DNA from: a virus
Taxonomy: Duplodnaviria > Heunggongvirae > Uroviricota > Caudoviricetes
Length of the DNA stretch: 12,551 nt
Virus record (IMG/VR): IMGVR_UViG_2703719355_000002
Location: 1 to 12,551 of that record
Direction: 5' to 3' (one strand)
Each line of letters starts with the position of its first letter. The first letter of the stretch is position 1. This document shows positions 185-12,551 of the stretch, in pieces. The notes below the pieces were generated by a model. That model ran no database searches and had not been told where the DNA came from. It saw nothing but the letters and a program-made list of their open reading frames with translations. A program made the position numbers and the translations under genes.

Positions 185-365
185 TGCCATTCAATCTGTC
201 CTCGCGCTCTTTGCGCTTGTAGTACCAGTTGATGCCAAATGTGCCGACAGTACAAAGAATACCAATGATGACAGCCCAGTCATTCAGGGAGAGAATGCCA
301 CCCATCGCAGTCAGTCCTCCGAAGCTGTAACTGAACCATTCTCTGATTTTGTCCATACGGTACAT
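162..365 (-). CDS. Holin with dual-start motif (MYRMDK: Met1 and Met4 separated by Arg), likely pinholin partner of the SAR endolysin
   Basis: 67 aa with hydrophobic segments ([28 protein letters not shown]) and a charged C-terminal tail ([11 protein letters not shown]); sits immediately upstream of and overlapping the endolysin, downstream of the Q-like gene. Resembles lambdoid S-type holins (S21/EssD style) by architecture. Confidence 0.8.
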
Positions 366-776
366 GCTCTACCCCTTCATTGAGGGGATTTGCTCTATTT
401 ATTAGGAATAAGGTCGATTACTGATAGAACAAATCCAGGCTACTGTGTTTAGTAATCAGATTTGTTCGTGACCGATATGCACGGGCAAAACGGCAGGAGG
501 TTGTTAGCGCAGCCTCTTGCCACCTGCTTTCACGAAGGTCATGTGTAGAAGGCCGCAGCGTAACTATCACTGATGAATTCAGGATAGCCAGTGGCTACGG
601 CTCAGTTTGGGTTGTGCTGTTGCTGGGCGGCGATGACGCCTGTACGCATTTGGTGATCCGGTTCTGCTTCCGGCATTCGCTTAATTCAGCACAACGGAAA
701 GAGCACTTATGGCTCGCATCGCGGGAAAAAGCCCACGGTAGAGAGTCGAACTCTACAAATGCTCTTACCTGTTGTG

Positions 777-809
777 CAAACAAAAAAGCCCCGACGTTTA
801 TGCCGAGGC
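777..809 (-). terminator. Rho-independent terminator on the minus strand (tR'-like, ends a short late-leader transcript)
   Basis: Minus strand reads GCCUCGGC-AUAAAC-GUCGGGGC (8-bp stem with two G.U pairs) followed by UUUUUUGUUUG. Located about 160 bp downstream of the Q-like stop and about 400 bp upstream of the holin, like lambda tR'. Confidence 0.6.
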
Positions 810-915
810 TCTTACCTAATCTAGCCAGTATGTCGACCCTAAATATTATCGGCAACCGGGGAAATCAGGATTTCAATTTCGCTGCTCAGTTCGCTTTTGC
901 TCCGAGCATATACGA

Positions 916-944
916 AAAATACCACTTTCATTTCTCGGAAGCAA
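916..944 (-). promoter_or_regulatory. Candidate late promoter PR'-like (-35 TTGCTT at 944..939, 17-bp spacer, -10 TATTTT at 921..916)
   Basis: Hexamers read by eye on the minus strand between the Q-like stop (968) and the terminator at 777..809; position matches lambda PR'/qut. No experimental or computational scoring done. Confidence 0.3.
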
Positions 945-967
945 CGCATTTACAAAATTATTTCAGT

Positions 968-1582
968 TCAGGCCGCTATCAATGGAAATTCTTTCTCCAA
1001 TTCTCGTTTCATTGCATAAAACATTTCTGACTCCAGCACTTTCTCACACCACACCACTCGCTTACGACAATATTGAATATCAGCACCTGTTATATAAGAA
1101 ATCATCCTGGCTATATCTTGCGTGCAATTGCGATTGCAATATCGCTTAATAGCTACATCGCGGACGGGGCTTTCACGGTGAAAAGTCTTGACCATCACAC
1201 GTTCAACGAAAGCCGCATCATCTGATTCTTTGGCGAGAGTGATGATGTGGCTAAACGATGATTGAGGAATGACCAGTTCGCGAGCTTTCTTGTATAGCAC
1301 ATCTCCGCGCAGCCCATCTTCTTCGTACAGGCGCATGACGACAGACTCTATCTGCTTAGCCTTGTCATCGCTCCACTGACTGCGAATCATCAGACGACCG
1401 ATAACGTTAATTGCACCACCTGGAGAGCAATCTCCGGCATTAACCTTGCCCCATACCTGTAACATGTAATGAACCCATGCTTTCTGGCTAGAGTTGATGG
1501 TTTTCTTCGGGTGTCTCCATACGCGGCGAAAGTGCGCGTCATTAATGAAGTTAACCATGCTGAATACTGGAGTTAACCGCAT
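968..1582 (-). CDS. Putative late-gene antiterminator Q-like protein (204 aa from the ATG at 1582..1580)
   Basis: ORF-track ORF 968..1612; I place the start at internal Met11 (ATG 1582..1580) because it has a GGGAGG RBS 5 nt upstream and a TGATG overlap with the preceding small ORF stop. Assigned as Q by position (after rusA/nin genes, before late leader, terminator and lysis genes). I do not recognise the sequence as lambda Q or DLP12 QuuD, so the functional call is positional. Confidence 0.5.
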   Translation of the reverse strand: MRLTPVFSMVNFINDAHFRRVWRHPKKTINSSQKAWVHYMLQVWGKVNAGDCSPGGAINVIGRLMIRSQWSDDKAKQIESVVMRLYEEDGLRGDVLYKKARELVIPQSSFSHIITLAKESDDAAFVERVMVKTFHRESPVRDVAIKRYCNRNCTQDIARMISYITGADIQYCRKRVVWCEKVLESEMFYAMKRELEKEFPLIAA

Positions 1583-1725
1583 CAGACCTCCCATCCTTTG
1601 CAATGACACCACACTTCAAACATTCGTTTCACAACCTCACGGCAGTAGAAACCGCCAGTATCGCGGGTAAGATCGTAGCGATTGCCATAACGCTGGCGCA
1701 TATATCGTTCGAATGCTTTGTTCAT
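1582..1725 (-). CDS. Small hypothetical protein, 47 aa (MNKAFERYMRQRYGNRYDLTRDTGGFYCREVVKRMFEVWCHCKGWEV), possible Cys/His metal-binding
   Basis: Hand-translated; ATG 1725..1723 overlaps the rusA stop as ATGA and its TGA overlaps the Q-like ATG (TGATG). Fills the rusA-Q gap exactly; position corresponds to ylcG in DLP12. Below the ORF-track length cutoff. Confidence 0.5.
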   Translation of the reverse strand: MNKAFERYMRQRYGNRYDLTRDTGGFYCREVVKRMFEVWCHCKGWEV

Positions 1726-2084
1726 ACGTTCTCCAGTTCGGTGATTTTTATTCCAAGCCTTCCGCCTGGTACTTTCACACCACGAATTACGCGAATGTCA
1801 TCGAATTGCTCGTCGTCTTCCGCAAATCCGGCGTGGATAAGGGAGTCGAGTAAACCTTTCAGGATGTTATCGAGGTCGCGGCGGCGGGAGTCTGGAACGT
1901 CTGCGATGACTTTGATGCGGAGTCGTGATTTTGTGAAAATATCTAACTTGAGTTGGTGGATGATTTGCTGAACGTCTTTTCGGTATTTCTGGCCTTTATC
2001 GCTGATGTAGTATTGGCTTCCCCGTCTTCGCCAGTAGGTATTCAACGACGGCGGGTATGGAAGCACAAACTGATATTCGTTCAT
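1722..2084 (-). CDS. rusA: Holliday-junction resolvase RusA (crossover junction endodeoxyribonuclease)
   Basis: 120 aa; PPS.N.YY...., PD.RRRDLDN and GGRL motifs align with my recollection of E. coli RusA (MNTYSITLPWPPSNNRYY...PDRRRRDLDNLQKA...KGGRLELTITE). ATGA overlap with the upstream ybcO-like gene. Confidence 0.9.
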   Translation of the reverse strand: MNEYQFVLPYPPSLNTYWRRRGSQYYISDKGQKYRKDVQQIIHQLKLDIFTKSRLRIKVIADVPDSRRRDLDNILKGLLDSLIHAGFAEDDEQFDDIRVIRGVKVPGGRLGIKITELENV

Positions 2085-2371
2085 GACTTAATCTTCCCCT
2101 CCTTCAGCAGTATCGCCTGCGTCCTGATCACGCCTTCGAGGTGGTAAAGTCTGGCGTCTTTGTTGTCGAGAATCCTTGTGCGTCGGTCGATCTCCGCGTG
2201 GCAGTCACTACAAGCCCATGCGCCGATCAGGTCGTCAGGCTTCATCCCCGTTCCACAAATTCCAGCCATCCGGTAATGTGCCAGAACTGTAGTTTCAGGA
2301 TTGCCATTGCATACGCCGTAAATACGTACCTGGCATTCTCTGCCGCGCGCTTCTTTGCGTAGGTTAGCCAT
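2081..2371 (-). CDS. ybcO: YbcO-like DUF1364 protein (putative zinc-binding nuclease of nin regions)
   Basis: 96 aa; MANLRKEARGRECQVRIYGVCNGNPETTVLAHYR...CSDCHAEIDRRT matches my recollection of DLP12 YbcO (MADLRKAARGRECQVRIPGVCNGNPETSVLAH...CSACHDEIDRRT). GAGGGAAGG RBS; ATGGCTAA overlap with the upstream ORF stop. Confidence 0.8.
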   Translation of the reverse strand: MANLRKEARGRECQVRIYGVCNGNPETTVLAHYRMAGICGTGMKPDDLIGAWACSDCHAEIDRRTRILDNKDARLYHLEGVIRTQAILLKEGKIKS

Positions 2372-2576
2372 TTACCTTCCCTCGCAATTGAAGAATTGAC
2401 TGAAGGTCTTTTTTAATAAATATGCGAGTGCGAATTGAGCAGTAGTTTTCCTTCATTCTGGCGTAGTAATAGTCCTTTCTTTGCTTAAGTTTGTTGGCAT
2501 CCGCTGTCATCCAGTCTTTTACAGCAAACTTAATTAGCCAGCGGTGGCAGAGATACCATTTCAGGTAATCACTCAT
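2364..2576 (-). CDS. Hypothetical nin-region protein, 70 aa
   Basis: ORF in the same co-directional chain, start overlaps the ninF stop (ATGAGTGA). No family recognised. Confidence 0.45.
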   Translation of the reverse strand: MSDYLKWYLCHRWLIKFAVKDWMTADANKLKQRKDYYYARMKENYCSIRTRIFIKKDLQSILQLRGKVNG

Positions 2577-2739
2577 CGTCTTCTTCCTCGTACATTGAGC
2601 TATTCGGATCGCTCATCAGTTCTGCGCAGCAGTGCTCACACACGTGAACTTCCAGCACATGCAGCTTCTGACCGCAGTTAGCGCACGTTAAAGCTCGCTC
2701 GACGCTTTCTTGTTCGTAACTTCGATTTGGGTCAATCAC
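2569..2739 (-). CDS. ninF: NinF-like protein (start placed at GTG 2739..2737; alternative ATG at 2781 would give 70 aa)
   Basis: C-terminal [38 protein letters not shown]...EEEDD matches my recollection of lambda NinF. The GTG start has a GAGGA RBS 7 nt upstream and a GTGA overlap with the ninE stop; the ATG at 2781 would overlap ninE by 46 nt. Confidence 0.6.
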
Positions 2740-2918
2740 CTTGTATTCCTCGCACGATGTCTTAGCCACCGGATATCCCACAGGTGAGCCGTGTAGTTGA
2801 AGGTTTTTACGTCAGATTCTTTCGGGATTGGCTTGCGTTTATTTCTGTAGCGTTTCGTTGGAAGGTATTTGCAGTTTTCGCAGATTATGTCGGTGATACT
2901 TCGTCGCTGTCGCCTCAT
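2736..2918 (-). CDS. ninE: NinE-like protein (60 aa from internal ATG 2918..2916)
   Basis: [60 protein letters not shown] matches my recollection of lambda NinE almost residue for residue. ATGA overlap with the dam stop. The longer ORF-track version (start 3008) lies inside dam and is rejected. Confidence 0.75.
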
Positions 2919-3445
2919 GCCGCCCTCCTGACGCCATGCCCGATTGCCATCAATGCCGCTTTGGATACGGTAGTAAACATCCGTCGAGGACTGATGAACG
3001 GTCGCCAAATCAGCAGCATGGAGCCTTTGCTGTTTCCCTTCTTCTCCAGCCCTGTCGATGGTTCGATAAAATTAATCCGTCCATCAGTGATGATGCGAAC
3101 TTCGTCGACACTCTCCAGAGCCTTGCTGAACCATCCGACTGACATATCCTCTGGCACAAGCATCACTACCGTCTGTCGCTGTTGTATGCACTGCTCAGCG
3201 GTTTTTTCCACCCACGGCCTGATATTGCTGTACGGTGGGTTATTCCAGATTGCACCGTGGCTTATCCACTCAGAATTGAGCGCGTCGTCGACCTCAGTTA
3301 GCCAGTGAGCGCACAGAGCGTTTTTGTCGCTCGCAGCTGAATCCAGCCAGAATCCAAACTCAATATCCAGTGCATCAAAAAGCCAAAGCGGCGTTTGCCA
3401 GCAGTCTCTAACTTCTTTTGGTGTTTCTGATTTATGCTTAATCAT
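2915..3445 (-). CDS. Phage DNA N6-adenine methyltransferase (phage Dam family)
   Basis: 176 aa with the NPPY catalytic motif ([10 protein letters not shown]) and the N-terminal [12 protein letters not shown]...FGF..DSAAS signature typical of phage Dam-type MTases in nin regions. GAGGG RBS; ATGA overlap with the HNH gene stop. Confidence 0.85.
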
Positions 3446-3969
3446 TCAACCCTCGCATATTGTCCGTGATATTTGTTGATAGCCTCACTGGCAACCAAAC
3501 CAGCAAGCTCAAGATCTTCATAGAACCCAAAATGCAACCGGCCAAAATCTGTGCGCACTTGAACGGCCCATTTATTTTTTTGCTTGTTCCATAAAACATT
3601 TTTTATTCCAGAACGGCTATTGCACTTAGTTTTCTGATTTCGGCTGTTTGCTATCCGGCTTGCCTCCCTAAGATTTTTTGGGGAATTGTCCAGCCTGTTT
3701 CCGTTAATATGGTCAATATTTTTCAATGGCATTCTTTTGTTGTGCAGCGCAAAAACAACTACGTGAACAAACATCTGAATGCCTGCAAAACACACCTGTC
3801 TATACCCAGATCCATTTATCGATGTTTTAATTTCATCTCCGGCCCGGTGGCTGTGGTTGGGGTGTTTTAGCGAGTCCTTTTTGTATCTGACTGTATCTCC
3901 GTCTAAATACAGATAATCCTCAATAAGCCGATACCTATCTGACGCTGGCGTATTTGATTTGATAGTCAT
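3442..3969 (-). CDS. HNH homing endonuclease (HNH plus AP2-like DNA-binding C-terminus), 175 aa from ATG 3969..3967
   Basis: His-Asn-His motif region HVVVFALHNKRMPLKNIDHINGNRLDNSPKNLREASRIANSRN; C-terminal KNVLWNKQKNKWAVQV...HFGFYEDLELA resembles AP2-domain tails of phage HNH endonucleases. ATGA overlap with the preceding HNH gene; GGGGAGA RBS. Confidence 0.8.
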   Translation of the reverse strand: MTIKSNTPASDRYRLIEDYLYLDGDTVRYKKDSLKHPNHSHRAGDEIKTSINGSGYRQVCFAGIQMFVHVVVFALHNKRMPLKNIDHINGNRLDNSPKNLREASRIANSRNQKTKCNSRSGIKNVLWNKQKNKWAVQVRTDFGRLHFGFYEDLELAGLVASEAINKYHGQYARVE

Positions 3970-4568
3970 GCAGCACTGTCTCCCCATCTCGCTTTCATTG
4001 TTTCATTTGCAAATCGCCAGAATCTTCCTTTGTGATATGAGCTTTCGCCATTACAGCAACGACTAATTGACGAACTATCAAATCCTTCTCTGACAGCATC
4101 CATAGCTGCTTCATAATAAACCTCCTCCCCAGTTTTCATGTCAGTAGAAATAACGGCTTTACTGGCAGGGTGATCACCACTAAATTTACCTAGCGATATA
4201 GGTATTCTTCCATTTTGTTTATATCCGTGCTTTGAGTTTTCAGAATGAGATACCCATTCAAGGTTTTCAGCCCTATTGTCATCTCTTTGCCCATTTTTGT
4301 GATTAACTACCAAGCCATCACAGAACCCTGTACAGAATGCTTTCGCAACTATCCTGTGGGCGCTGTATTTCTTACCGTATACCTTTATTTGAAGATATCC
4401 TGTCGACTTGCACTTGAATGGTTTTACGCTAGTGCCATTAATTATTTTCTTATATGGCCTCTGTCTGGTTGATGTTACTGTAATTTCCCTCGCAATAGAC
4501 CTGAAATTTCCTTTATTGCTAACCTGATAAAATGGAATTCCTTCGATATCTACCCAAACCTCAATCAT
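3966..4568 (-). CDS. HNH homing endonuclease (NUMOD4-like N-terminus plus HNH), 200 aa
   Basis: N-terminal EVWVDIEGIPFYQVSNKGNFRS (NUMOD4-like), HRIVAKAF and VNHKNGQRDDNRAENLEWVSHSEN (HNH motif). GGAGGAATT RBS; start overlaps the ninB stop. Confidence 0.8.
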   Translation of the reverse strand: MIEVWVDIEGIPFYQVSNKGNFRSIAREITVTSTRQRPYKKIINGTSVKPFKCKSTGYLQIKVYGKKYSAHRIVAKAFCTGFCDGLVVNHKNGQRDDNRAENLEWVSHSENSKHGYKQNGRIPISLGKFSGDHPASKAVISTDMKTGEEVYYEAAMDAVREGFDSSSISRCCNGESSYHKGRFWRFANETMKARWGDSAA

Positions 4569-4977
4569 AATTCCTCCATTCGCTAAGATGAATTGAGTTC
4601 ATGGCACAATATGCTTCTATGTAGTCCATTATTTCGGATATTTTTTTTACAGATAGAGTCGCCGTACTCTCTCTGATGTTTATTAGCTCACCTTCTAACC
4701 CTGATATAATCTCAGGGTGCTGGTTGGTTGCAATCTGCCAACCAGAAACGAATAACCCCTTCCAAAACTCAATATTTCTTGCTTTTCCATGATATGTAGC
4801 CTTCTTACTTATTTCAGATAGCATCGCGTGAAGGCGTGCATTTTGCCGAATGCTGCGGTTGCGTTCCTGAATGGTTACTACGATTGGTTTGGTTGGGTCT
4901 GGAAGGATTTGCTGTACTGCGTGAATAGCGTTTTGCTGATGTGCCGGAGATCGAATTTCAAAGGTTAGCTTTTTCAT
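4561..4977 (-). CDS. ninB: NinB (Orf-family recombination mediator), 138 aa from ATG 4977..4975
   Basis: MKKLTFEIRSPAHQQNAIHAVQQILPDPTKPIVVTIQERNRS matches my recollection of the lambda NinB N-terminus; the C-terminal half diverges but keeps a similar pattern. GGGAGAGGGAAG RBS. The ORF-track start at 4995 is judged too far upstream. Confidence 0.85.
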   Translation of the reverse strand: MKKLTFEIRSPAHQQNAIHAVQQILPDPTKPIVVTIQERNRSIRQNARLHAMLSEISKKATYHGKARNIEFWKGLFVSGWQIATNQHPEIISGLEGELINIRESTATLSVKKISEIMDYIEAYCAMNSIHLSEWRNYD

Positions 4978-5054
4978 GACTTCCCTCTCCCCCAAATAAA
5001 AAGGCCTGCGATTACCAGCAGGCCTGTTACAAGCTCAGTGATGTAGATGGTCAT
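4974..5054 (-). CDS. Candidate 26-aa hydrophobic micro-protein (MTIYITELVTGLLVIAGLFIWGRGKS)
   Basis: Hand-translated; ATG overlaps the upstream gene stop (ATGA) and its TGA overlaps the ninB ATG (ATGA), so it fills the intergenic gap exactly. Single predicted TM segment. The same DNA also folds as a hairpin followed by a T-run on the minus strand, so it could instead be a terminator. Confidence 0.3.
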   Translation of the reverse strand: MTIYITELVTGLLVIAGLFIWGRGKS

Positions 5055-5320
5055 TGCTTCATCTCCCTTTCCATTTCATCAATGTCAACGTCATCAGGAA
5101 GATGGGAGCAATACGCCGCTATACCATGATGATTTATCTCATACCCTTTGAACGTTACCATCTGGTGCGTAATCTCAACTTCGTTCAGGAATCCGTCATC
5201 GCATAACTGCCTGGCTATTTTCGATTTGGTCTGGATTATTGGTAGTGCCTGTTCTTTCAAAGCGCATGATATTTGTGCATCCCATGCCTTTTCGAGAATG
5301 GCTAATTGTTTTTTATTCAT
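5051..5320 (-). CDS. Hypothetical protein, 89 aa (position of lambda ren, not recognisably Ren)
   Basis: GGAG RBS 6 nt upstream; start ATG abuts the primase-helicase stop (TAA at 5321..5323). Acidic C-terminus (DDVDIDEMEREMKQ). No family recognised. Confidence 0.6.
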   Translation of the reverse strand: MNKKQLAILEKAWDAQISCALKEQALPIIQTKSKIARQLCDDGFLNEVEITHQMVTFKGYEINHHGIAAYCSHLPDDVDIDEMEREMKQ

Positions 5321-7201
5321 TTAATACTCCGTCACGTTTTCCTGTCGCCACGCCTCGTCATATTCCGATTTCGGCATATTGGCGATGTAGCTATATGGCG
5401 ATCCTGATTCAAGTTGCAGGAACTGGTGCGATTGCTCGTCAAGGAACAACGGGACACCACCTTCCCAACCTTCGCCGTTACGTTGTTTTTCAAGCATCAA
5501 AACAGATGCCGGAGATGCCAGTAGCTGTTCGTCCTTCTCTGACATCTTTTCACCACTCTGAACTCTCTGTAACGCTCTCTCGCGAGCCTTGTTACGCCAG
5601 ATGATGAAAAGGTTGTCTGTCAGGTCTGTTATCGCTCCAGAGCCTTTTACGTCCATTTTCCCGGTTGGTTTTTCTTCGCTGTCTCCTTTTCGCGAGTGAG
5701 TAACGAGAATGACGTGGGAGTTTGTTTTGTTTTTGAAGTCGCAAATCGAGTCAACAAAAGCCTTCTGCCCGTTATAGTCATCGTCGCCTATGCCACATTT
5801 CATCAGGCTGTCGATGATGAATAACTGGATCCCGTATCGGCGGCGAGCGTAGTCGAATATTTCGATCAGCCTGTCGGCTTTCGCCGTTCCGGTCAGGCCA
5901 AACACCCAAAGTCTTTCGTCATAAAATTTAAATGCAGAGTCAATTTCCAGCACTGGCGGCATCTTGCAGCACGTCGCCTGACGGGTAAGGCGCTTAAGGA
6001 GAATACCAGGCTTCAGCTCAAGTGACGCGATGCACGTCTTCACTCCCTGACGCATTGCCTCAAGTGCCATATGCCCGACAACCTCCGTTTTTCCGTGACC
6101 GTTCACACCATTGACCAGCGTCAACTCTGCCTCACGGAACTGGAATTTATCTGCCAGAGATTCCCACGGTGGATTAAACAGATACTGCTGCTTGCCGTAG
6201 AAAGCGTTGATAGTGTCCTGGTAAAACTCTCGCGCACTGTAGAGTTCTTCAGGATCGAAGTAGGATGCCGTGCCGATGTACTGCCAGATTTCATCCTCGG
6301 TAACACCGTTCATCAGGCATTCGTTGATGTCTTTGTACGGCAGAGTAACAAGACGGCAACGATGTTCACCGAGTCGGCTTGCGATTTCCCTTGCGGCTTC
6401 ACGACCAACATCATCAACGTCCATCGAGATGAATATTTCCTCAAACCTGTCGAGGTTGTGGTACTCAAACTCAATCCACTGTTGCTTAGCGCCTTTCCCT
6501 CCACCAAACGGCACGGATAACGCCGAGATGCCGTATTGCGCATAGCTCATACAATCAATTTCGCCTTCGCAAAGTACAACCGCCCTCACGCCAGCGTCCA
6601 GAGCCTGCCATCCGAACAGACAAGGTTCGCAATCACCTTCTGCCATAATGACTTTCTTCCCGTCCGGGCGCTCAGTGCTGATTCGCTTGACCTGCAACAA
6701 CTCACCATCGCGTTTGTACGGAAGCACCAGTGCATCAAGTTCTCGTTCTCCATTCCACACCTTGCCGCTGACAACCTCGTAGCGCTTTACGACTTCTGGC
6801 GATATGCCACGCGATTGCAGGTACTCAAGATGGGATTCTGTTCTGGTAACGTAGCGGGCGATTTTCTTGCGGTCAGGTCTGGAGAATTTCTTCTCACGTT
6901 TGGCATCGAAATGGTGATCGTCATCCTTGATACCGAGAAATGCTTTCGCTTCCTGCATAGCCTGATGCAGGTTAATTCCACGACATGCCATCCACAAATC
7001 AAGCATGTCACCGCCGTCTCCCTCAGCGAAATCAGCCCATTTTTTCTTGCCGCTAAGGTTGACCTTAAGGCTGTTTCCCTTGTCACCGTTGACGTTACCG
7101 GCAACCCACTCATGCCCCTCTTTCTTGCCGTTTGGCAACAGGTGCGGAGCCACCCTGTCAACCTGCGCCCAAAGCAGGTCGCTGAGTTCACTTGGCCTCA
7201 T
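5321..7201 (-). CDS. Bifunctional DNA primase-helicase (Toprim primase domain plus DnaB/RecA-like helicase domain)
   Basis: 626 aa. Toprim signature: VVLCEGEIDCMSYAQYG ... ISMDVDDVGREAA. Helicase: Walker A GVNGHGKT, Walker B-like LFIIDSLMKC, ILVTHSRKG. GAGGGA RBS. Sits in the lambda P position downstream of the initiator. Confidence 0.9.
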   Translation of the reverse strand: MRPSELSDLLWAQVDRVAPHLLPNGKKEGHEWVAGNVNGDKGNSLKVNLSGKKKWADFAEGDGGDMLDLWMACRGINLHQAMQEAKAFLGIKDDDHHFDAKREKKFSRPDRKKIARYVTRTESHLEYLQSRGISPEVVKRYEVVSGKVWNGERELDALVLPYKRDGELLQVKRISTERPDGKKVIMAEGDCEPCLFGWQALDAGVRAVVLCEGEIDCMSYAQYGISALSVPFGGGKGAKQQWIEFEYHNLDRFEEIFISMDVDDVGREAAREIASRLGEHRCRLVTLPYKDINECLMNGVTEDEIWQYIGTASYFDPEELYSAREFYQDTINAFYGKQQYLFNPPWESLADKFQFREAELTLVNGVNGHGKTEVVGHMALEAMRQGVKTCIASLELKPGILLKRLTRQATCCKMPPVLEIDSAFKFYDERLWVFGLTGTAKADRLIEIFDYARRRYGIQLFIIDSLMKCGIGDDDYNGQKAFVDSICDFKNKTNSHVILVTHSRKGDSEEKPTGKMDVKGSGAITDLTDNLFIIWRNKARERALQRVQSGEKMSEKDEQLLASPASVLMLEKQRNGEGWEGGVPLFLDEQSHQFLQLESGSPYSYIANMPKSEYDEAWRQENVTEY

Positions 7202-7305
7202 GATTCCCTCAGATTGAGATTTTTAAACCAGAAATCGACAAACGAAATACTTAACCAGCCGTGGTTATAACCAGCGACCAGTAGCGATTTGATTTTTGAT
7301 TTCAT
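7198..7305 (-). CDS. Candidate 35-aa micro-ORF (MKSKIKSLLVAGYNHGWLSISFVDFWFKNLNLRES)
   Basis: Hand-translated; AGGTGA RBS 4 nt upstream, stop TGA overlaps the primase-helicase ATG (ATGA). Fills the initiator-primase gap. Confidence 0.3.
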   Translation of the reverse strand: MKSKIKSLLVAGYNHGWLSISFVDFWFKNLNLRES

Positions 7306-7308
7306 GGT

Positions 7309-8085
7309 TCACCTGTCGAAAAACACGTAGCCAGTTTTCGATACGGTGATTGCGGATGATGGTTTGGATTGTGGTTGAATAGTTTCTGGCTTCTCGTCGT
7401 TCCAGCGCTGACCGTTCAGGTAGCTCGATGGTAACAACCTGTCGAATCCGAACTGCTTACCATTCCTGCATGCGATGTCTTCTGCCAGCATCGTGGCAAA
7501 CTCGCTTGCCGTACCCCTGGTAGTTTTACGCCATTCCCTGAACTGTGTTCTGAATGCTGAAGCTGCGTTTTTCTTCCCGGCTTTCCGCATGCCTGCACAC
7601 CAGAATATTTCCTCGAACGCCTTGTCGGTTTCTTCGTGACGGTCAGGAGTTTTTTCACACTCTGTTCGGACATGTTCGAACATAATGTTTTTAGGTTCAT
7701 TGACTGGTTCAAAAGAGTGATAGGTTCTGGGGGCAGCTCCTGCCCCACCCCCTAGGGCAGCTCCTGCCCCACCCCGGGCAGCTCCTGCCCCACCTGATTC
7801 TGGTTGGATTTGTTGTGCATTATCCAGCGTCAGATAAAAAACGTTTGACTGGTTAAGCTCTCCTTTTCTTCTGAGTTCCCTTTTCAAAAGCCCCATCTCT
7901 TCCAGTGCCCTAATGTGATTTTTTACTGTCGATCTGCTCACCTCACACTGGTCAGCGACATGTTGATATGAAGGCCAGCATTCGCCATTATCATTGGCGT
8001 TATCGGCAAGTTTAATCAGAACCAGTTTTCTCAGTGGGTTGCCAACCTTTATATTCATGGCCTTAGCCATAAGATTCATGCTCAT
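7309..8085 (-). CDS. Replication initiator (O-like): N-terminal HTH DNA-binding domain, Gly/Ala linker, C-terminal DnaT-like domain
   Basis: 258 aa. N-terminal LRKLVLIKLADNANDNGECWPSYQHVADQCEVSRSTVKNHIRALEEMGLL is a typical phage replication-protein HTH; central GGAGAARGGAGAALGGGAGAAP linker; the C-terminal domain resembles DnaT-like replication proteins (lower confidence). GGAGAA RBS. Located between cII and the primase-helicase. Confidence 0.8.
   Translation of the reverse strand: MSMNLMAKAMNIKVGNPLRKLVLIKLADNANDNGECWPSYQHVADQCEVSRSTVKNHIRALEEMGLLKRELRRKGELNQSNVFYLTLDNAQQIQPESGGAGAARGGAGAALGGGAGAAPRTYHSFEPVNEPKNIMFEHVRTECEKTPDRHEETDKAFEEIFWCAGMRKAGKKNAASAFRTQFREWRKTTRGTASEFATMLAEDIACRNGKQFGFDRLLPSSYLNGQRWNDEKPETIQPQSKPSSAITVSKTGYVFFDR
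7729..7794. repeat. Three tandem copies of the palindrome GGGCAG-CTC-CTGCCC (period 24/21 bp) inside the initiator gene: candidate origin iterons
   Basis: Seen directly: ggggcagctcctgcccc at 7730..7746, gggcagctcctgccc at 7755..7769 and 7776..7790. They encode the in-frame Gly/Ala linker. Analogous to ori-lambda iterons inside the O gene. Confidence 0.6.
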
Positions 8086-8225
8086 TTTGACTTCTCCGAA
8101 GTTTTGTACCTGTTAAGTATTTCTCTCAGTGGCACAGCTATTGCTGGATTAACCCCTTGATAAAACTGGTCACGTAGCACATCTTTTCGGTGATTAACGC
8201 GTTTATTTTCCTGCGTTTTTCGCAT
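8082..8225 (-). CDS. Small basic hypothetical protein, 47 aa (MRKTQENKRVNHRKDVLRDQFYQGVNPAIAVPLREILNRYKTSEKSK)
   Basis: Internal start of ORF-track ORF 8082..8393; ATG 8225..8223 has a GAGGT RBS (GAGGTAATTATATG) and lies just after the cII stop; its stop overlaps the initiator ATG (ATGA). The upstream part of the track ORF overlaps cII in another frame and is rejected. Confidence 0.4.
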   Translation of the reverse strand: MRKTQENKRVNHRKDVLRDQFYQGVNPAIAVPLREILNRYKTSEKSK

Positions 8226-8247
8226 ATAATTACCTCGCTGGATGTTG

Positions 8248-8547
8248 TTAAAATTCCATTTGTATTTGATCAGAACGCTCGGTCTTGCACACCGGGCGTT
8301 TTTTCTTTGTGATTTCATCAAGCGCATACTTAAAAGCCCTGCTAATCGGACTGATGTCTGATGCCATTCCGAAAGCACACAAGACTGAAGCAATAAATCT
8401 CCAGTCCGTTCTGCTTATCTTCGATTCATGACAGCCAATCATCTTTGCCAGACCGCGCTGGGTAAGCGTTGACAGGTTGATGAGTAAATCTGTTTCTGCG
8501 CGATCAACGTCGCGCTGTGATAGTTTGCTGTAACTTGTTTGTTCCAT
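8248..8547 (-). CDS. cII: CII-like transcriptional activator (lysogeny establishment)
   Basis: 99 aa; HTH region plus a C-terminus KKKRPVCKTERSDQIQMEF that matches my recollection of lambda CII (...KKRPAATERSEQIQMEF). Position between cro and the replication genes. Confidence 0.85.
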   Translation of the reverse strand: MEQTSYSKLSQRDVDRAETDLLINLSTLTQRGLAKMIGCHESKISRTDWRFIASVLCAFGMASDISPISRAFKYALDEITKKKRPVCKTERSDQIQMEF

Positions 8548-8557
8548 TTCTTATGAT
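8525..8557 (+). promoter_or_regulatory. PRE-like CII-dependent promoter: TTGC-N6-TTGT (8525..8538) with -10 TATGAT (8552..8557)
   Basis: Plus-strand TTGCtgtaacTTGT lies inside cII codons 4-8 on the opposite strand, the same arrangement as lambda PRE (TTGC-N6-TTGC in cII codons 3-7); TATGAT sits 13 nt further on, matching lambda spacing. Would drive antisense-cro/cI transcription. Confidence 0.5.
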
Positions 8558-8599
8558 TTCCAATAGTGAATATTACGCATCTGTTGATGCGTTTTTTGT

Positions 8600-8637
8600 G
8601 GGGACGAATCATCCCCGACCTGATTGTTTAAAGAGCG
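8600..8637 (-). promoter_or_regulatory. nutR-like site: boxA CGCTCTTTAAACA (8637..8625, minus) and boxB hairpin GGGGAUGAUUCGUCCCC (8616..8600, minus)
   Basis: boxA closely matches the boxA consensus as I recall it (CGCTCTTA / rrn GCTCTTTAACAA). The boxB hairpin (5-bp stem GGGGA/UCCCC, 7-nt loop) is identical to the one at 10819..10835 on the plus strand. Located just downstream of cro, as in lambda. Confidence 0.6.
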
Positions 8638-8644
8638 GTGTTAC

Positions 8645-8869
8645 TTATGCTGCCTGATTCGGTTTTGGAAACAGGTGTGGCAAATCGGGGCGAATTTCAT
8701 AAGCCTTGATCTGCCCTCCAGTGGCGTTAACGATGGCGGTAACTTTCTCTGGAGAGACCAACCCGCCTTTCAGCCATTTGTGTACTGCTGGCTGCGTTAC
8801 ACCACACTTGTCGGCAAGGCGCTTTTGGCTACCGACAATTTTCAAGGCTCGTTGAATTACTAAATTCAT
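8645..8869 (-). CDS. cro: Cro-like repressor (HTH), 74 aa from ATG 8869..8867
   Basis: HTH QKRLADKCGVTQPAVHKWLKG; divergent from cI across the operator region; AGAGGT RBS 6 nt upstream of the chosen ATG. The ORF-track start at 8890 has no RBS and would place the start inside the promoter. Confidence 0.8.
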   Translation of the reverse strand: MNLVIQRALKIVGSQKRLADKCGVTQPAVHKWLKGGLVSPEKVTAIVNATGGQIKAYEIRPDLPHLFPKPNQAA

Positions 8870-8902
8870 GAGCATACCTCTTGTGGTCATTACTTATAAC
8901 CA

Positions 8903-8931
8903 AAGATAACTCAAGTTATAAAAAATAGCAA
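8903..8931 (-). promoter_or_regulatory. PR-like promoter (-35 TTGCTA at 8931..8926, 17-bp spacer, -10 TATCTT at 8908..8903)
   Basis: Read on the minus strand; the -10 and spacer are overlapped by the operator at 8906..8919 and the -35 abuts the operator at 8931..8944. Predicted start about 25 nt upstream of the cro ATG. Confidence 0.5.
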
Positions 8932-8968
8932 TAACCTTTGTTATTTTACTTTGGATAACCGTAGTTAT
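8906..8968. promoter_or_regulatory. OR operator array: three 14-bp palindromes ATAAC-N4-GTTAT at 8906..8919, 8931..8944 and 8955..8968
   Basis: ATAACTCAAGTTAT, ATAACCTTTGTTAT, ATAACCGTAGTTAT; centres spaced 25 and 24 bp, in the cro-cI intergenic region. The same consensus recurs at the proposed OL (10710..10748). Confidence 0.65.
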
Positions 8969-8971
8969 AGA
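8966..8971 (+). promoter_or_regulatory. Candidate PRM -10 (TATAGA), which would make cI mRNA leaderless
   Basis: TATAGA lies 9 nt upstream of the cI ATG at 8981, inside/adjacent to the third operator; no good -35, as expected for an activated PRM. Weak by-eye call. Confidence 0.25.
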
Positions 8972-8980
8972 TTTGTGGGT

Positions 8981-9688
8981 ATGAAAACATTCGCAGAAAG
9001 ACTAAATGCAGCCATGAGCTCAGCAGGTGTGTCGCAATCACAGCTTGCTGACATGGTTGGAATATCTCAGCCAGCCATACAGAAGATGTCATCCGGTAAA
9101 ACAAACGGATCTCGCAAGATGGTTGAATTAGCCAATGCTTTAAAAGTACGCCCTGAATGGCTTAGCTCTGGTATTGGTGAAATGAGGGATGGTACACATG
9201 AAGAACCATCCAATGTCCGTGAATCATCTTTAAAAGCTGTGGTATGGGAAGATATTAAAAGAAACGATGACGAGTTTGTCGCGTTGCCTCTTCTTAACGT
9301 TTCGCTTTCAGCTGGAAGCGGTAGCTGCGAGCTAGAGGAATCATCAGAGTTCTCTTTGGTTTTCAGAAAGTACTATCTGAAAAAGATGGGGGTATCTGAA
9401 AGATCAGCCAAGCTAGTTAGGGTTGTAGGGCAAAGCATGGAACCAACGCTTCACGACGGAGATGTTGTTGGCGTTAACACACAAGATACCACAATCAGAG
9501 ATGGTAAAACCTACGCTATTTGCCAGTCTGATTTGTTACGAGTAAAAACATTAATCGCCACCCCAACATCGGTGATAATCAGATCAATAAATCGCGAAGA
9601 GTACCCAGATGAAGTAATGGATAGAGATGAATTTAATAAAACCGTAAGGATTATTGGCAGAGTATTCTGGTCGTCTCATAGTTGGTAA
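8981..9688 (+). CDS. cI: CI-type prophage repressor (N-terminal HTH, C-terminal LexA/S24 autopeptidase domain), 235 aa from ATG 8981
   Basis: HTH QSQLADMVGISQPAIQKMSSG; Ala-Gly cleavage site in SLSAGSG; catalytic Ser in GQSMEPT and Lys in LRVKTLI. The TTG start at 8951 proposed by the ORF track overlaps the third operator, so ATG 8981 is preferred. Confidence 0.9.
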   Translation: MKTFAERLNAAMSSAGVSQSQLADMVGISQPAIQKMSSGKTNGSRKMVELANALKVRPEWLSSGIGEMRDGTHEEPSNVRESSLKAVVWEDIKRNDDEFVALPLLNVSLSAGSGSCELEESSEFSLVFRKYYLKKMGVSERSAKLVRVVGQSMEPTLHDGDVVGVNTQDTTIRDGKTYAICQSDLLRVKTLIATPTSVIIRSINREEYPDEVMDRDEFNKTVRIIGRVFWSSHSW

Positions 9689-9723
9689 CCAGTGGCCTGA
9701 AGAGACGTTTGGATAACACGTAA

Positions 9724-10161
9724 ATGATTAAAGAACGTATTTCTTATATCATTCCGATTGCGATGGATGAAGGCAACCCAGTAACTCCGGTTCTTATCTA
9801 TGAAATGGATAAAGACTCCCATGAAGTGGATCTATCATTTGGCGCTTTTTTTATCGGCCTTAAGGCTACAAAAAAATATTCCATAGGCATTGAGGTTTTC
9901 AATGCTCAAGAAATACCGATACCAATTGACACAAAACTGTACTCCAACCATAAGTTTTTTACGGTAGCAGAAGCCAACGATGGAGAAACCATCGTATCAA
10001 CTTCTATGAGAATTAACTTCCCAAGGGTGAAAATTATCAAGCCTGGGATATTCGAAGTTAGAGCATCACTGGTTAATCCTGATAAAGGCGAAGTAATTGA
10101 TGTAAAAAGTTCGTTTTTTGACGTGAAGATAACAGGATCAGTTCGCGATGAGTTTAGATAA
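9724..10161 (+). CDS. Hypothetical protein, 145 aa, first gene of the cI-linked cargo cassette (rexA position)
   Basis: ORF begins 36 bp after the cI stop, same strand; AT-rich; no motif I recognise. Its 3' end overlaps the next ORF by 14 bp. Confidence 0.6.
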   Translation: MIKERISYIIPIAMDEGNPVTPVLIYEMDKDSHEVDLSFGAFFIGLKATKKYSIGIEVFNAQEIPIPIDTKLYSNHKFFTVAEANDGETIVSTSMRINFPRVKIIKPGIFEVRASLVNPDKGEVIDVKSSFFDVKITGSVRDEFR

Positions 10162-10519
10162 CAAGGTTGCTCAGCTTCGTCCAAATCAAAACATATCTCG
10201 CCCAATTGGACACTATTCAACTGATGATGCATACTCACGGCATGGTGGAGGAAACGGCGGAGGTAACATGCTTGAGGCTAGAGTTGCAAAGCTAGAGTCT
10301 GATGTTGAATACATCAAGCGCGATATCGCTGAGGTAAAGTCAGATATAAAATCTGTAGATTCTCGTCTGTCAGGTATTGAGACAAGCATTAACTCAGCAA
10401 AAACCACCATCAAGGCATCTGCGGTCGTTGTCAGTTTCGTGTTCGCATTTTGCGCCTACATTTTTGGAAGTTATGTTTCCAAAATCCTTGATGCCTTAAA
10501 CGGACTCGTTCTTAAGTAA
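10148..10519 (+). CDS. Hypothetical membrane-anchored coiled-coil protein, 123 aa (possibly 83 aa from Met41), second gene of the cassette (rexB position)
   Basis: Gly-rich N-terminus (SRHGGGNGGGN), heptad-like coiled coil (LEARVAKLESDVEYIKRDIAEVKSDIKSVDSRLSGIETSIN), single C-terminal TM helix (ASAVVVSFVFAFCAYIFGSYV). Architecture resembles XhlA-like small membrane proteins. The alternative start at 10268 has a GGAGGT RBS. Confidence 0.6.
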   Translation: MSLDNKVAQLRPNQNISRPIGHYSTDDAYSRHGGGNGGGNMLEARVAKLESDVEYIKRDIAEVKSDIKSVDSRLSGIETSINSAKTTIKASAVVVSFVFAFCAYIFGSYVSKILDALNGLVLK

Positions 10520-10524
10520 CACAC

Positions 10525-10553
10525 AACCCGGCCACCGAGCCGGGTTTTCTTTG
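10525..10553 (+). terminator. Rho-independent terminator ending the cI/cargo transcript
   Basis: AACCCGGC-caccga-GCCGGGTT (8-bp stem) followed by TTTTCTTT, 6 bp after the cassette stop codon. Confidence 0.75.
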
Positions 10554-10709
10554 CCTCACGTTCGCCCTCCCATATTTAATAGCCGCAAATGTGGTAAACC
10601 GCGAACCAACTCACCAGCAATACCCCCTCCAACTACAGACCAATCTGCAACATTTACAAAAATAAAATACCTTTGCTATCCATCACTTATAACTTATTTA
10701 CCACAAAAT

Positions 10710-10751
10710 ATAAACTAAGTTATTGACCATACCCATAACCTAAGTTATCTT
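10710..10751 (+). promoter_or_regulatory. OL/PL-like: operators ATAAACTAAGTTAT (10710..10723) and ATAACCTAAGTTAT (10735..10748), with -35 TTGACC (10723..10728) and -10 TATCTT (10746..10751)
   Basis: Same palindrome consensus and 25-bp spacing as OR; same -10 hexamer as PR; 17-bp spacer; rightward orientation toward nutL and the N-like ORF. Confidence 0.55.
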
Positions 10752-10796
10752 TAAGCCATCAGCAGGACGCAGGAAGCCAAACGGAACAGATTGGCA

Positions 10797-10835
10797 GGCT
10801 CTTTAACATTGATGGAATGGGGATGATTCGTCCCC
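10797..10835 (+). promoter_or_regulatory. nutL-like site: boxA GGCTCTTTAACATT (10797..10810) and boxB GGGGATGATTCGTCCCC (10819..10835)
   Basis: boxB is identical to the nutR copy and boxA is near-identical; both are oriented in the direction of early transcription, about 45 nt downstream of the predicted PL start. Confidence 0.6.
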
Positions 10836-10990
10836 ACCAAAGAGAGGTTGGCTTTGGGATTTGATGAATGCGCAGGTCGATGCGCTACCACTTAGCGGTG
10901 AGCACCTGCATTTTGGGCAGGATGGATAGCCGCAATAAGGGGATCGACACATGACATCAAATCACCAAAGTCAATCATCGGAGGTATCCA

Positions 10991-11197
10991 GTGAAAGCAA
11001 GAGGGATTCGCAAACTCGAACGCGCTCGTAAGCACAAAGAGGCGACAGCAAAACGTAAAAATATTGACCGTGTTTCAATGGTGGTTTCGCTAGCAGGAGC
11101 GAATAGGAAGAAGGTTGAATGTGGTTCGTGCTGCCTGCCAAACGTAGCTCTTTACGCGGCAGGCTACCGGAAATCAAAACAACTGACAGCGAGGTAA
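10991..11197 (+). CDS. Candidate N-like antitermination protein, 68 aa, GTG start, Arg/Lys-rich N-terminus
   Basis: First ORF downstream of PL/nutL; GAGGT RBS 5 nt before the GTG; N-terminus MKARGIRKLERARKHKEATAKRKN resembles arginine-rich motifs of N proteins. Shorter than lambda N (107 aa) and without recognisable sequence identity, so the call is positional. Confidence 0.45.
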   Translation: MKARGIRKLERARKHKEATAKRKNIDRVSMVVSLAGANRKKVECGSCCLPNVALYAAGYRKSKQLTAR

Positions 11198-11199
11198 TT

Positions 11200-11493
11200 A
11201 TGGATATTTCATGTATTGAACAATTACTAATTGAGAAAACGAAAGAAATGCTTGATGTATTGGACATAAAAATATCTGAGTTAAAAGATACACCCGCGAC
11301 ACAACTTATTCTCGAACGTAGTCGAAATAAATTCTTAGAGTTAAGCCCTGACGTTCAAAATATAGCATCTAAACTGCTGGCTACATTGATTGAGAGGAAT
11401 GCATTGTTATCGATGTCATCAGATGAACGAAAAAAACTGGCGAACGAAGATGCTGCAACCATCCGCCAGGCATTCGAAATTTTGTTTTCTTAA
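11200..11493 (+). CDS. Hypothetical protein, 97 aa (start at internal ATG 11200 of track ORF 11119..11493)
   Basis: GAGGT RBS 4 nt upstream; ATG lies 2 nt after the N-like stop. Predicted helical; no family recognised. Confidence 0.55.
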   Translation: MDISCIEQLLIEKTKEMLDVLDIKISELKDTPATQLILERSRNKFLELSPDVQNIASKLLATLIERNALLSMSSDERKKLANEDAATIRQAFEILFS

Positions 11494-11658
11494 TTACTTA
11501 CTGTTTATTCTGATAATCTCATCAAGAATTTTTTCATAAACAACTGTGATTGGCTTTCCGTCAATGCCAGGGGCAAGATTACCGGCTCTGATAAGCTCAA
11601 CAATAATCTGTTGAGCGGCTTCGTGTGGGTTGGTTTTAGGATTAACAATATCTGTCAT
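11494..11658 (-). CDS. Small hypothetical protein, 54 aa (MTDIVNPKTNPHEAAQQIIVELIRAGNLAPGIDGKPITVVYEKILDEIIRINSK), antisense to the PL operon
   Basis: Internal start of track ORF 11494..11814, with AAGAAGGG 7 nt upstream; the longer N-terminal extension runs through the direct repeats and looks non-coding. Confidence 0.4.
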   Translation of the reverse strand: MTDIVNPKTNPHEAAQQIIVELIRAGNLAPGIDGKPITVVYEKILDEIIRINSK

Positions 11659-11672
11659 AACAAAGCCCTTCT

Positions 11673-11719
11673 TTTGACTGTGGAAACAACAGTCTACCCA
11701 TTTCCTTTGACTGTGGAAA
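11673..11719. repeat. Direct repeat: two copies of TTTGACTGTGGAAA (11673..11686, 11706..11719), 33 bp apart
   Basis: Seen directly; located immediately upstream of the minus-strand 54-aa ORF start, so a candidate regulator binding site or promoter element. Confidence 0.5.
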
Positions 11720-11869
11720 GTGAAGGAACCACCGAGCCTGATGTGGTTAAAAGACAGGCATACTAATAAACACTGCACTGTGTATTCATTCCAACGAGTG
11801 AATACACGGAGCAATGTCGCTCGTAACTAAACAGGAGCCGACTTGTTCTGATTATTGGAAATCTTCTTT

Positions 11870-11897
11870 GCCCTCCAGTGTGAGGGCGATTTTTTTC
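11870..11897 (+). terminator. Rho-independent terminator within the PL operon (tL-like)
   Basis: GCCCTC-cagtgt-GAGGGC followed by GATTTTTTTCTG on the plus strand; 18 bp upstream of the next ORF. The reverse complement has no T-run, so it is unidirectional. Confidence 0.65.
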
Positions 11898-11914
11898 TGT
11901 GAGGATATGAACAG

Positions 11915-12283
11915 ATGTCAAACATCAAAAAATACATCATTGATTACGACTGGAAAGCATCAATAGAAATTGAAATCGACCATGACTTAATGACAGAGGA
12001 AAAACTTCACCAGATTAATAATTTCTGGTCAGACTCTGAATACCGACTCAATAAACACGGCTCTGTATTAAATGCTGTATTAATCATGCTGGCGCAACAT
12101 GCTCTGCTTATAGCAATTTCAAGCGACTTAAATGCATATGGTGTTGTGTGTGAGTTCGACTGGAATGATGGAAATGGTCAGGAAGGATGGCCTCCAATGG
12201 ATGGTAGCGAAGGAATAAGAATTACCGATATCGATACATCAGGAATATTTGATCCAGATGATATGACTATCAAAGCCGCCTGA
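11915..12283 (+). CDS. Ea10-like protein (by position upstream of cIII), 122 aa, acidic C-terminal half
   Basis: ORF-track ORF; occupies the lambda ea10 position. The name is positional and from memory of the lambda gene order; I cannot verify the sequence. Confidence 0.55.
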   Translation: MSNIKKYIIDYDWKASIEIEIDHDLMTEEKLHQINNFWSDSEYRLNKHGSVLNAVLIMLAQHALLIAISSDLNAYGVVCEFDWNDGNGQEGWPPMDGSEGIRITDIDTSGIFDPDDMTIKAA

Positions 12284-12355
12284 GCGCGGCGTTACCGCAT
12301 ACCAATAACGCTTCACTCGAGGCGTTTTTCGTTATGTATAAATAAGGAGCACACC

Positions 12356-12496
12356 ATGCAATATGCCATTGCAGGGTGGCCTGTTGCTGGCTGCCCTTCC
12401 GAATCTTTACTTGAGCGAATCACACGTAAATTACGTGACGGATGGAAACGCCTTATCGACATACTTAATCAGCCAGGAGTTCCAAAAAATGGATAA
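12356..12496 (+). CDS. cIII: CIII (FtsH/HflB inhibitor that stabilises CII), 46 aa
   Basis: Hand-translated: MQYAIAGWPVAGCPSESLLERITRKLRDGWKRLIDILNQPGVPKNG, matching my recollection of lambda CIII residues 1-46 including the conserved amphipathic helix; AAGGAG RBS 7 nt upstream. Stops 8 codons short of lambda's 54 aa. Confidence 0.8.
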   Translation: MQYAIAGWPVAGCPSESLLERITRKLRDGWKRLIDILNQPGVPKNG

Positions 12497-12551
12497 AACA
12501 CTTATGGCTATCCAGACTAAATTCACTATCGCCACTTTTATTGGCGATGAA
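12489..12551 (+). CDS. kil: Kil-like host-killing/cell-division inhibitor, 5' part only (runs off the right edge)
   Basis: MDKTLMAIQTKFTIATFIGDE matches my recollection of the lambda Kil N-terminus (MDQTLMAIQTKFTIATFIGDE...). AGGAG RBS 9 nt upstream; ATG overlaps the cIII 3' end. Confidence 0.65.
   Translation, partial: MDKTLMAIQTKFTIATFIGDE

Follow-up and report, generated by a model that had tools for sequence, protein, structure and literature searches.

The N/nut module of the early region

The stretch of viral DNA considered here (12,551 nucleotides (nt), positions 1 to 12,551 of the IMG/VR record IMGVR_UViG_2703719355_000002, and called the window in the following) is the early regulatory region of a lambdoid Escherichia coli prophage. 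It holds a complete set of the parts of an N/nut module, namely a boxA and a boxB in each of the two early operons and, at the head of the PL operon, an open reading frame (ORF) of 68 codons for an N-like protein with an arginine-rich motif (ARM). The layout, which runs cII, nutR, cro, OR, cI, tIMM, OL/PL, nutL and N, matches the annotated records of lambda, P22 and HK620, and the closest relative of the nutL-N segment, with 99.6% identity, lies on the chromosome of strain Z1323CEC0019.

The 17-mer GGGGATGATTCGTCCCC is present exactly twice in the window, at 8600-8616 on the minus strand (nutR) and at 10819-10835 on the plus strand (nutL), where 0.01 occurrences are expected by chance and none of 200 shuffles reached the observed count; an earlier note on this DNA, made from the letters alone, had claimed that both nut sites share an identical 17-nt boxB hairpin, and this is exactly the case. 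The hairpin, GGGGAUGAUUCGUCCCC, is unchanged at nutL in all loci examined, and at nutR it is conserved in its position, with cII next, in all related loci. Each copy is preceded by a boxA, as had also been noted: the nutR boxA CGCTCTTTAA (8628..8637, minus strand) starts 9 nt past the cro stop codon, which is its position in lambda and P22 as well, and the nutL boxA GGCTCTTTAA (10797..10806, plus strand) is shared, together with the spacer, with the annotated nutL of HK620. Both contain the exact core GCTCTTTAA, at 8628-8636 (minus) and 10798-10806 (plus). Taken alone, the boxA 9-mer is unremarkable, as four copies were found with one mismatch allowed and 3.5 are expected, but both exact cores are located 11-12 nt 5' of a boxB and on the strand of the early transcript. 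As nutR follows cro and nutL follows PL, about 45 nt past its -10 element, the two sites are correctly placed and oriented in the PR and PL operons, and lambda, P22 and HK620 have their annotated nut sites in the same positions.

The 5-bp stem with a 7-nt loop that had been drawn for the hairpin is one of three possible folds and needs correction, since ViennaRNA prefers a 7-bp stem that includes a U.G and a G-C pair and closes a 3-nt A-U-U loop (-9.7 kcal/mol) over a 6-bp stem with a pentaloop (-8.3 kcal/mol) and the 5-bp stem with the 7-nt loop (-6.4 kcal/mol). The comparative data cannot choose among these folds, because the inner positions never vary. The 7-nt loop would read U-G-A-U-U-C-G, or G-N-U-U-C as a pentaloop if the U.G pair closes, and its last base is C and not A. 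A GNRA-like pentaloop boxB of the lambda/P22 type was thus considered and rejected, as the loop ends in C and the predicted minimum free energy structure has a triloop. On the transcript, no U-tract comes after the hairpin, where nutL continues with ACCAAAGAG and nutR with ACAAAAAAC, and the terminator scan calls neither copy, so that a role of boxB as intrinsic terminator was rejected as well. Rfam (in evalue mode) recognized no family at the nut sites; its sole match in the window is the cIII thermoregulator.

The 68-codon ORF, at 10991..11197 on the plus strand, heads the PL operon and starts, with a GTG codon, 155 nt past the nutL boxB. A Shine-Dalgarno sequence GGAGG (10980..10984) is situated 6 nt upstream of the start and is kept in all relatives. 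That the ORF is N-like and arginine-rich, as had been proposed, is borne out by profile searches: it scores 60.7 bits against the Pfam family N_peptide (PF25694, cutoff 27.9, E = 2e-16), its residues 13-68 covering positions 45-100 of the 100 in the profile. Residues 14-67 also match PHROG 271, 'anti-termination protein N-like' (E = 6.5e-13). No NCBIfam model matches this N or its 80-residue relative described below. The ARM begins at residue 1 and extends to about residue 22 (MKARGIRKLERARKHKEATAKRK), and 11 of the first 23 residues are lysine or arginine. Residues ~23-68 (..IDRVSMVVSLAGANRKKVECGSCCLPNVALYAAGYRKSKQLTAR) are homologous to residues ~53-100 of P22 gp24, and residues 1-22 (MKARGIRKLERARKHKEATAKR) stand in for the 13-residue leader, the ARM and the ~22-residue linker of gp24. 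With 68 residues, the protein is the shortest N in this analysis (lambda 107, P22 100, HK620 90).

In the protein database there are three clusters of 68-residue N proteins with 87-100% identity. The prophages that encode them differ in their replication modules, of which there are at least four, and also have several different recombination modules. Ten distinct nucleotide alleles were found, in all of which the 68 codons are intact, with pS up to 0.23 and pN/pS of 0.14-0.45. These data indicate a genuine N gene that is under selection.

Linkage of ARM and boxB

All E. coli loci with the 68-residue N have the exact boxB at nutL and at nutR, while the flanking bases differ. The ARM of the family follows the consensus MKAR(E/G)IRKLERAR(K/Q)HKE and is nearly invariant across 122 cluster representatives. 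The same ARM also heads an N of 80 residues, which is frequent among Enterobacter cloacae complex prophages; the search returned 415 cluster representatives, and nearly all of the 120 listed ones, which were inspected, have the ARM MKAREIRKLERAR(Q/K)HKE. In IMG/VR contigs, the ARM, including the diverged forms MKARELRKRLRAEAHRE, MKAREIKKLRRAKEYR and MKAREVRKLARASEHRE, is always encoded 3' of a nutL with GGGGAUGAUUCGUCCCC, and a matching nutR is followed by cII; as these loci were fetched by the DNA pattern of the boxB, they show that this boxB class is always accompanied by the ARM. ARM and boxB co-occur in about 60 loci, and wherever this ARM is present in E. coli, Enterobacter and Erwinia prophages, both nut sites have a boxB of this class. 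The part behind the ARM is exchangeable: with an unchanged boxB, the ARM is joined in some loci to an N C-terminus of the P22/HK620 type (..LPxVALYAAGxRKS..TAR) and in others to a lambda-like one (..NRLYYSKP..RQKMKLGSKPLY or ..RQKMRGCCIPLI).

Among 13 distinct nut sites, the outermost base pair of the boxB is A-U in five, G-C in five, G.U in two and C-G in one and is thus always paired, and position 8 in the loop can be A, U, C or G. The remaining 14 of the 17 nucleotides are invariant in the Escherichia, Enterobacter and Erwinia loci. This variation supports the base of the stem and says nothing on the inner U.G and G-C pairs, and the invariance points to a sequence-specific read-out of the rest. 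In the boxB of lambda and P22 one loop base is extruded, and the free position 8 recalls this base. A looser collection pattern, in which the four outer stem pairs were left free in order to find further covariation in the stem, returned only the same family and a few chance matches that form no hairpin.

As an observation apart, two IMG/VR contigs (L050, 1681-1870, and L130, 4814-5110, plus strand) contain two or three units of boxA and hairpin in tandem on one strand, spaced by about 115-150 nt. Their hairpins differ, one being CGGGAUGGUUCGUCCCG, which belongs to the class of the window, and another GUCACGCCUAAUAGCGUGAU. These units might serve two N specificities as nut sites.

Comparison with known N/nut systems

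The window has much in common with lambda, namely the gene order, the nut positions, an ARM that starts at residue 1, the downstream terminators, a large stem in the N leader, and the composition of the nut site of boxA, spacer and a short G+C-rich boxB hairpin. Differences are seen in the boxB, the ARM, the length of N and the boxA. In GenBank records the boxB was found to be unlike those of lambda and P22, as the earlier note had stated, and also unlike that of HK620: lambda has GCCCUGA(A/G)AAAGGGC (DNA GCCCTGA(A/G)AAAGGGC) where the window has GGGGAUGAUUCGUCCCC, and the window loop, which ends in C and contains UUCG, cannot form a GNRA-like pentaloop, unlike the lambda loop. The ARM has no equivalent of lambda Trp18, and the boxA has the consensus rrn/P22 form GCUCUUUAA, whereas that of lambda is GCUCUUA.

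With P22, the window shares the consensus boxA and a similar spacing of boxA and boxB (19-21 nt counted from the start of boxA), and the C-terminal 46 residues of gp24 and of the window N are clearly homologous (IDRV..SLAG..LPxVALYAAGxRKSKQxTAR), but the 13-residue leader, the ARM GNAKTRRHERRRKLAIERD and the ~22-residue linker of gp24 are absent or replaced in the window N, and the P22 boxB is GCGCUGACAAAGCGC at nutL (DNA GCGCTGACAAAGCGC) and CCGCCGACAACGCGG at nutR. The comparison with HK620 is the closest, with ~96% DNA identity over PL, the transcript start, boxA, the spacer, the leader stem and the last 21 N codons, and yet the segment from boxB to the ARM of N is replaced; HK620 has the boxB UCCCGCCGAAAUGCGGGA (DNA TCCCGCCGAAATGCGGGA) and the ARM NARNRRRARRQAQRE in its N of 90 residues. 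The N of H-19B is larger, with 127 residues, and has its ARM at 12-RSRRRER-18 (PMC3526286).

In the Stx1 phage SH2026Stx1 (MG986485), the immunity region cII-cro-cI with its operators is 92.7% identical to that of the window, and a P22-type boxB at both nut sites is combined with the P22-type ARM GNAKTRRHERRRKLAIERD. By this comparison, SH2026Stx1 is a natural co-swap of the nutL boxB, the nutR boxB and the ARM, and in the comparison with HK620, too, these three are exchanged as one unit. Together with the co-occurrence in about 60 loci (part of which were retrieved by the boxB pattern), this supports the assignment in the earlier note of the 68-residue N to this boxB as its cognate protein. 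The N of SH2026Stx1 (L160; 1740-1870 and 4480-5110) is itself a hybrid, in which ARM and linker are of the P22 type and the C-terminus (..GRQKMKLGSKPLI) is of the lambda type, and it is a clean natural case of modular exchange within N.

Nun of HK022 is likewise a small ARM protein that is encoded in the N position and binds boxB RNA; it terminates transcription on the nut sites of other phages, and HK022 itself uses put RNAs. In the window, nut sites that match the protein are present in both early operons of the phage itself, PL and PR, and its C-terminus is N-like, so that a Nun-type exclusion protein was rejected. Gp17 of mEp021 is a recently recognised N-like antiterminator with an ARM and its own nut sites in the non-lambdoid mEpimmI phages (PMC11893012). 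Unlike in the window, there are three nut sites with an adenine-rich boxB loop, the register of the ARM is Arg17-24, and the genome is not lambdoid (PMC11893012). A tblastn lead to the Erwinia phage Midgardsormr38 was dropped, as it matched in the central region only and this phage has a different ARM and the boxB CUACCGCCGCUUGCGGUAG.

Proposed mechanism and alternative explanations

It is quite probable that the ARM-boxB pair represents a specificity class that is distinct from the lambda, P22 and HK620/H-19B classes. In our judgement, the N/nut module in the window is functional, and it has a minimal N and belongs to a specificity class not characterised before; its RNA binding, specificity, Nus dependence and antitermination are inferred from the sequence. 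The PL and PR transcripts would each carry a nut site, within ~60 nt in case of PL and just past cro in case of PR, consisting of the near-consensus boxA, the spacer of 11-12 nt and the boxB hairpin. The first PL gene would give rise to the 68-residue N, the extreme N-terminal ARM of which (MKAR-IRKLERAR-HKE) would bind boxB, whereas its C-terminal 46 residues, homologous to those of P22 gp24 and HK620 N, would engage the elongation complex together with Nus factors bound to boxA. RNA polymerase could then read through the expected Rho-dependent terminator past nutR and also pass the intrinsic terminators at 5002-5025 (minus strand), 11868-11889 and 12307-12326 (both plus strand), and this read-through would give access to the nin region and the Q-like gene from PR and to cIII from PL. 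The first of these terminators is in the tR2 position of lambda, between the replication genes and ninB and upstream of the Q-like gene, the second is the tL1-like terminator of the PL operon 3' of N, both being candidate N targets, and the third, also in the PL operon, was found by the terminator scan, as was the second, just ahead of the cIII leader. Terminator-like sites thus separate both nut sites from the delayed-early genes; a Rho-dependent tR1 is not recognisable from sequence. The long covarying stem of the N leader probably modulates the translation of N, as the RNase III stem does in lambda.

A more far-reaching interpretation is rather doubtful and is offered as a tentative one only. 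The MKAR-type ARM and its boxB would have a recognition mode unlike those of lambda, P22 and phi21, based on a non-GNRA loop with the invariant core U-G-N-U-U-C-G, in which one loop base is free and the invariant stem may be read directly. The 68-residue N, which has neither leader nor linker, could therefore be the minimal natural processive antiterminator, possibly with altered requirements for Nus factors.

Several observations speak against a functional module of a specificity of its own, and they are best considered together with the explanations that compete with it. The 68-codon ORF could be the decayed remnant of a longer N, and the nut hairpins could be relics in a defective prophage without working antitermination. 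In the E. coli RefSeq loci L002 and L003, the annotation by PGAP is confined to the last 30 codons (4349-4438, which is 11108-11197 in the window) and calls them a pseudogene, 'regulator, incomplete, missing N-terminus', and the ORF is indeed shorter than the lambda, P22 and HK620 genes for N. The start codon of the window allele is GTG where other lineages have ATG, and its ARM has a Gly5 that was seen in only one of 122 cluster representatives, the other 121 having Glu5, so that the window copy may be less active than the consensus. The ~22-residue linker of P22 gp24 is missing, and as the corresponding region of lambda N holds a NusA-binding segment, full activity is not guaranteed. Nevertheless, a decayed remnant is quite unlikely, as it does not fit with ten alleles that are all intact over 68 codons at low pN/pS, a strong and conserved Shine-Dalgarno sequence, an almost invariant ARM, a boxB that stays constant at both nut sites while its flanks drift, the occurrence of the module in mosaic prophages with complete early operons, and a score above the Pfam gathering threshold. 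The pseudogene call is very likely wrong, because the 68-residue clusters, the variety of prophage modules around them, the intact alleles with low pN/pS and the Shine-Dalgarno sequence are all at odds with it.

It could also be that N and the nut sites are functional without any new specificity, and that the MKAR-type ARM binds loosely or cross-recognises known boxB types. In vitro, N peptides can also bind boxB RNAs other than their own, so that an exclusive specificity is not proven, and by eye A3, R7, K/R8, R11 and A12 line up with the ARM of lambda N. No relative of solved structure was found for N in a sequence search of the PDB, and the boxB structure is backed by a single covarying pair, since six of the seven predicted pairs never vary. 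In the free state, N proteins are disordered. A loose recognition would leave the invariance of 14 of 17 boxB nucleotides across three genera unexplained, and it conflicts with the joint replacement of ARM and boxB in SH2026Stx1 and the HK620 relatives, where boxA, spacer and leader were retained; selection against mismatched pairs would be expected to leave just such a pattern. Such a looseness is therefore considered unlikely. Finally, the repeated hairpin might be no N target at all and might instead act as an intrinsic terminator, be cut by an RNase, block Rho or be bound by a Nun-like exclusion protein. It is short and G+C-rich, and there is a second hairpin after nutR and a processing-type stem after nutL, but the absence of a U-tract after either copy on the transcribed strand, the fixed distance of both copies from boxA at canonical nut positions, and the homology of the C-terminus of the ORF to the antiterminators P22 gp24 and HK620 N make any such role extremely improbable, and a Nun-like protein that terminated transcription at the nut sites of its own phage would defeat itself. 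A module with its own ARM-boxB specificity thus remains the preferred explanation.

RNA structures downstream of the nut sites

In lambda, a stem in the N leader that is processed by RNase III relieves N autorepression, and by analogy the long-range stem at 10846..10976 (plus strand) would be its positional counterpart in the window. Its 5' arm (10846-10867) and 3' arm (10956-10976) enclose a variable insert, and the 3' arm ends about 4 nt ahead of the N Shine-Dalgarno sequence. The leader fold has z = -4.5 and the 21-bp duplex of the arms -27.4 kcal/mol. The arms covary in relatives (L004, L020, L045, L053, L058, L060, L061, L106, L118 and HK620, which is L001), cognate arms having a mean of -14.4 kcal/mol and non-cognate ones of -5.9 kcal/mol, with none of 10000 permutations as low. 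This permutation test on duplex energies was used instead of RNAalifold, which missed the long-range stem in the chimeric leaders, the variable arms having been misaligned by MAFFT. A CUUUGG of the leader can instead pair with the CCAAAG right after boxB, which suggests alternative structures of the N leader.

Some Enterobacter-type relatives contain a tRNA gene or a tRNA-like sequence within the variable insert of the leader. ARAGORN called a tRNA-Pro(agg) in L106 (8562-8645, plus strand) and a tRNA-Ser(tga) in L034 (2758-2828, minus strand), and T-arm-like GGTTCGATTCC motifs are present in the leaders of L109, L083, L151, L077 and L022. In these relatives, a tRNA would thus be embedded between nutL and N.

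Between nutR and cII, in the tR1 position of lambda, the conserved hairpin ACGCAUCAACAGAUGCGU is found at 8575..8592 on the minus strand. The fold of 8560-8640 (minus strand) has z = -3.6, and relatives share the beginning of the hairpin. There is no U-tract after it on the PR transcript; on the plus strand TTTTTTG comes after it, and there the hairpin was called terminator-like. The hairpin is located just 3' of the expected start of a cII-activated, PRE-type promoter (TTGC-N6-TTGT near 8525-8541, by eye).

Occurrence and significance

In E. coli the pair of ARM and boxB is rare, with 10 of 5426 complete genomes, but in Enterobacter prophages it is common, there mostly with the 80-residue N. 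A scan of GTDB species representatives gave two Erwinia loci only, which is explained by the strain-specific nature of prophages. None of 50,697 phage records covers the boxB-ARM segment in its E. coli or Enterobacter version, and full-text searches of a literature library gave no paper with the boxB or the ARM sequence. What is new here is the ARM-boxB specificity class and the compact N, the N/nut system itself being textbook knowledge.

Pairs of N and boxB are textbook models of the recognition of RNA by arginine-rich peptides and are widely used as tethering tags, but to our knowledge only few specificity classes have been studied, namely those of lambda, P22, phi21 and H-19B. The class described here has a wide natural distribution among prophages of Enterobacter, E. 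coli and Erwinia, and its boxB has 14 invariant nucleotides and a loop that cannot fold in a GNRA-like manner. It would offer a new orthogonal ARM-RNA pair and, if the specificity is as proposed, an orthogonal tool for peptide-RNA tethering. The 68-residue N can be regarded as a natural deletion experiment on the parts of N that are needed, and its annotation, now that of a pseudogene fragment in PGAP, would have to be corrected. The known picture of the mechanism of N antitermination is unchanged by all this.

Other features of the early region

The operators of the region are ATAAC-N4-GTTAT palindromes. Three of them, at 8906, 8931 and 8955, make up OR (8889..8968, from repeat analysis and sequence), from which PR and PRM diverge, PR being read by eye as TTGCTA-17-TATCTT on the minus strand. 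At least two such palindromes make up OL, which together with PL occupies 10686..10751 (plus strand); the PL-like promoter TTGACC-17-TATCTT is found between them at 10723-10751, and the sequence 3' of it is nearly identical to the annotated pL-nutL region of HK620. In the plus-strand direction, cI is followed by two unknown ORFs, a terminator, OL/PL, the N gene, small genes and the cIII thermoregulator RNA (12343-12401; Rfam Lambda_thermo, 88.5 bits). The repressor gene cI (8981..9688, plus strand) encodes a helix-turn-helix and S24 peptidase protein (Pfam HTH_3 and Peptidase_S24; PGAP homologues of 235 residues), and an intrinsic terminator of the terminator scan at 10525..10546 (plus strand) closes its operon, at the same place where the tIMM of HK620 is annotated.

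The two unknown ORFs overlap (9724-10161 and 10148-10519, plus strand) and have the position of lambda rexAB, between cI and the terminator. They match PHROG 5893 and 6136, both families of unknown function, and PADLOC gave no convincing match for them. The second ORF encodes a coiled-coil protein with a hydrophobic C-terminal segment and weak XhlA/CorA-like matches. Both ORFs are candidates for an exclusion module expressed by the prophage.

On the minus strand, cro (8645..8869; Pfam YdaS_toxin, HTH_3 and P22_Cro, PGAP homologue a transcriptional regulator of 74 residues) is followed by cII (8248..8547; Pfam Phage_CII, E = 1e-33), an O-like initiator gene (7309-8085) and a primase-helicase gene (5321-7201), and beyond these by ninB, two HNH endonuclease genes, Dam, YbcO, RusA, the Q-like gene and the holin gene. 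The two endonuclease genes, which are adjacent and inserted into the nin region with ninB on one side and the Dam methyltransferase gene on the other, overlap (3442-3987 and 3966-4568), and one of them has a NUMOD4 domain. The gene in the Q position (968-1612) gave no match in Pfam, but is assigned to PHROG 753, 'anti-termination protein Q-like', with E = 8.5e-67, and about 155 nt 3' of it a strong, tR'-like intrinsic terminator (784-813, minus strand) precedes the holin gene.

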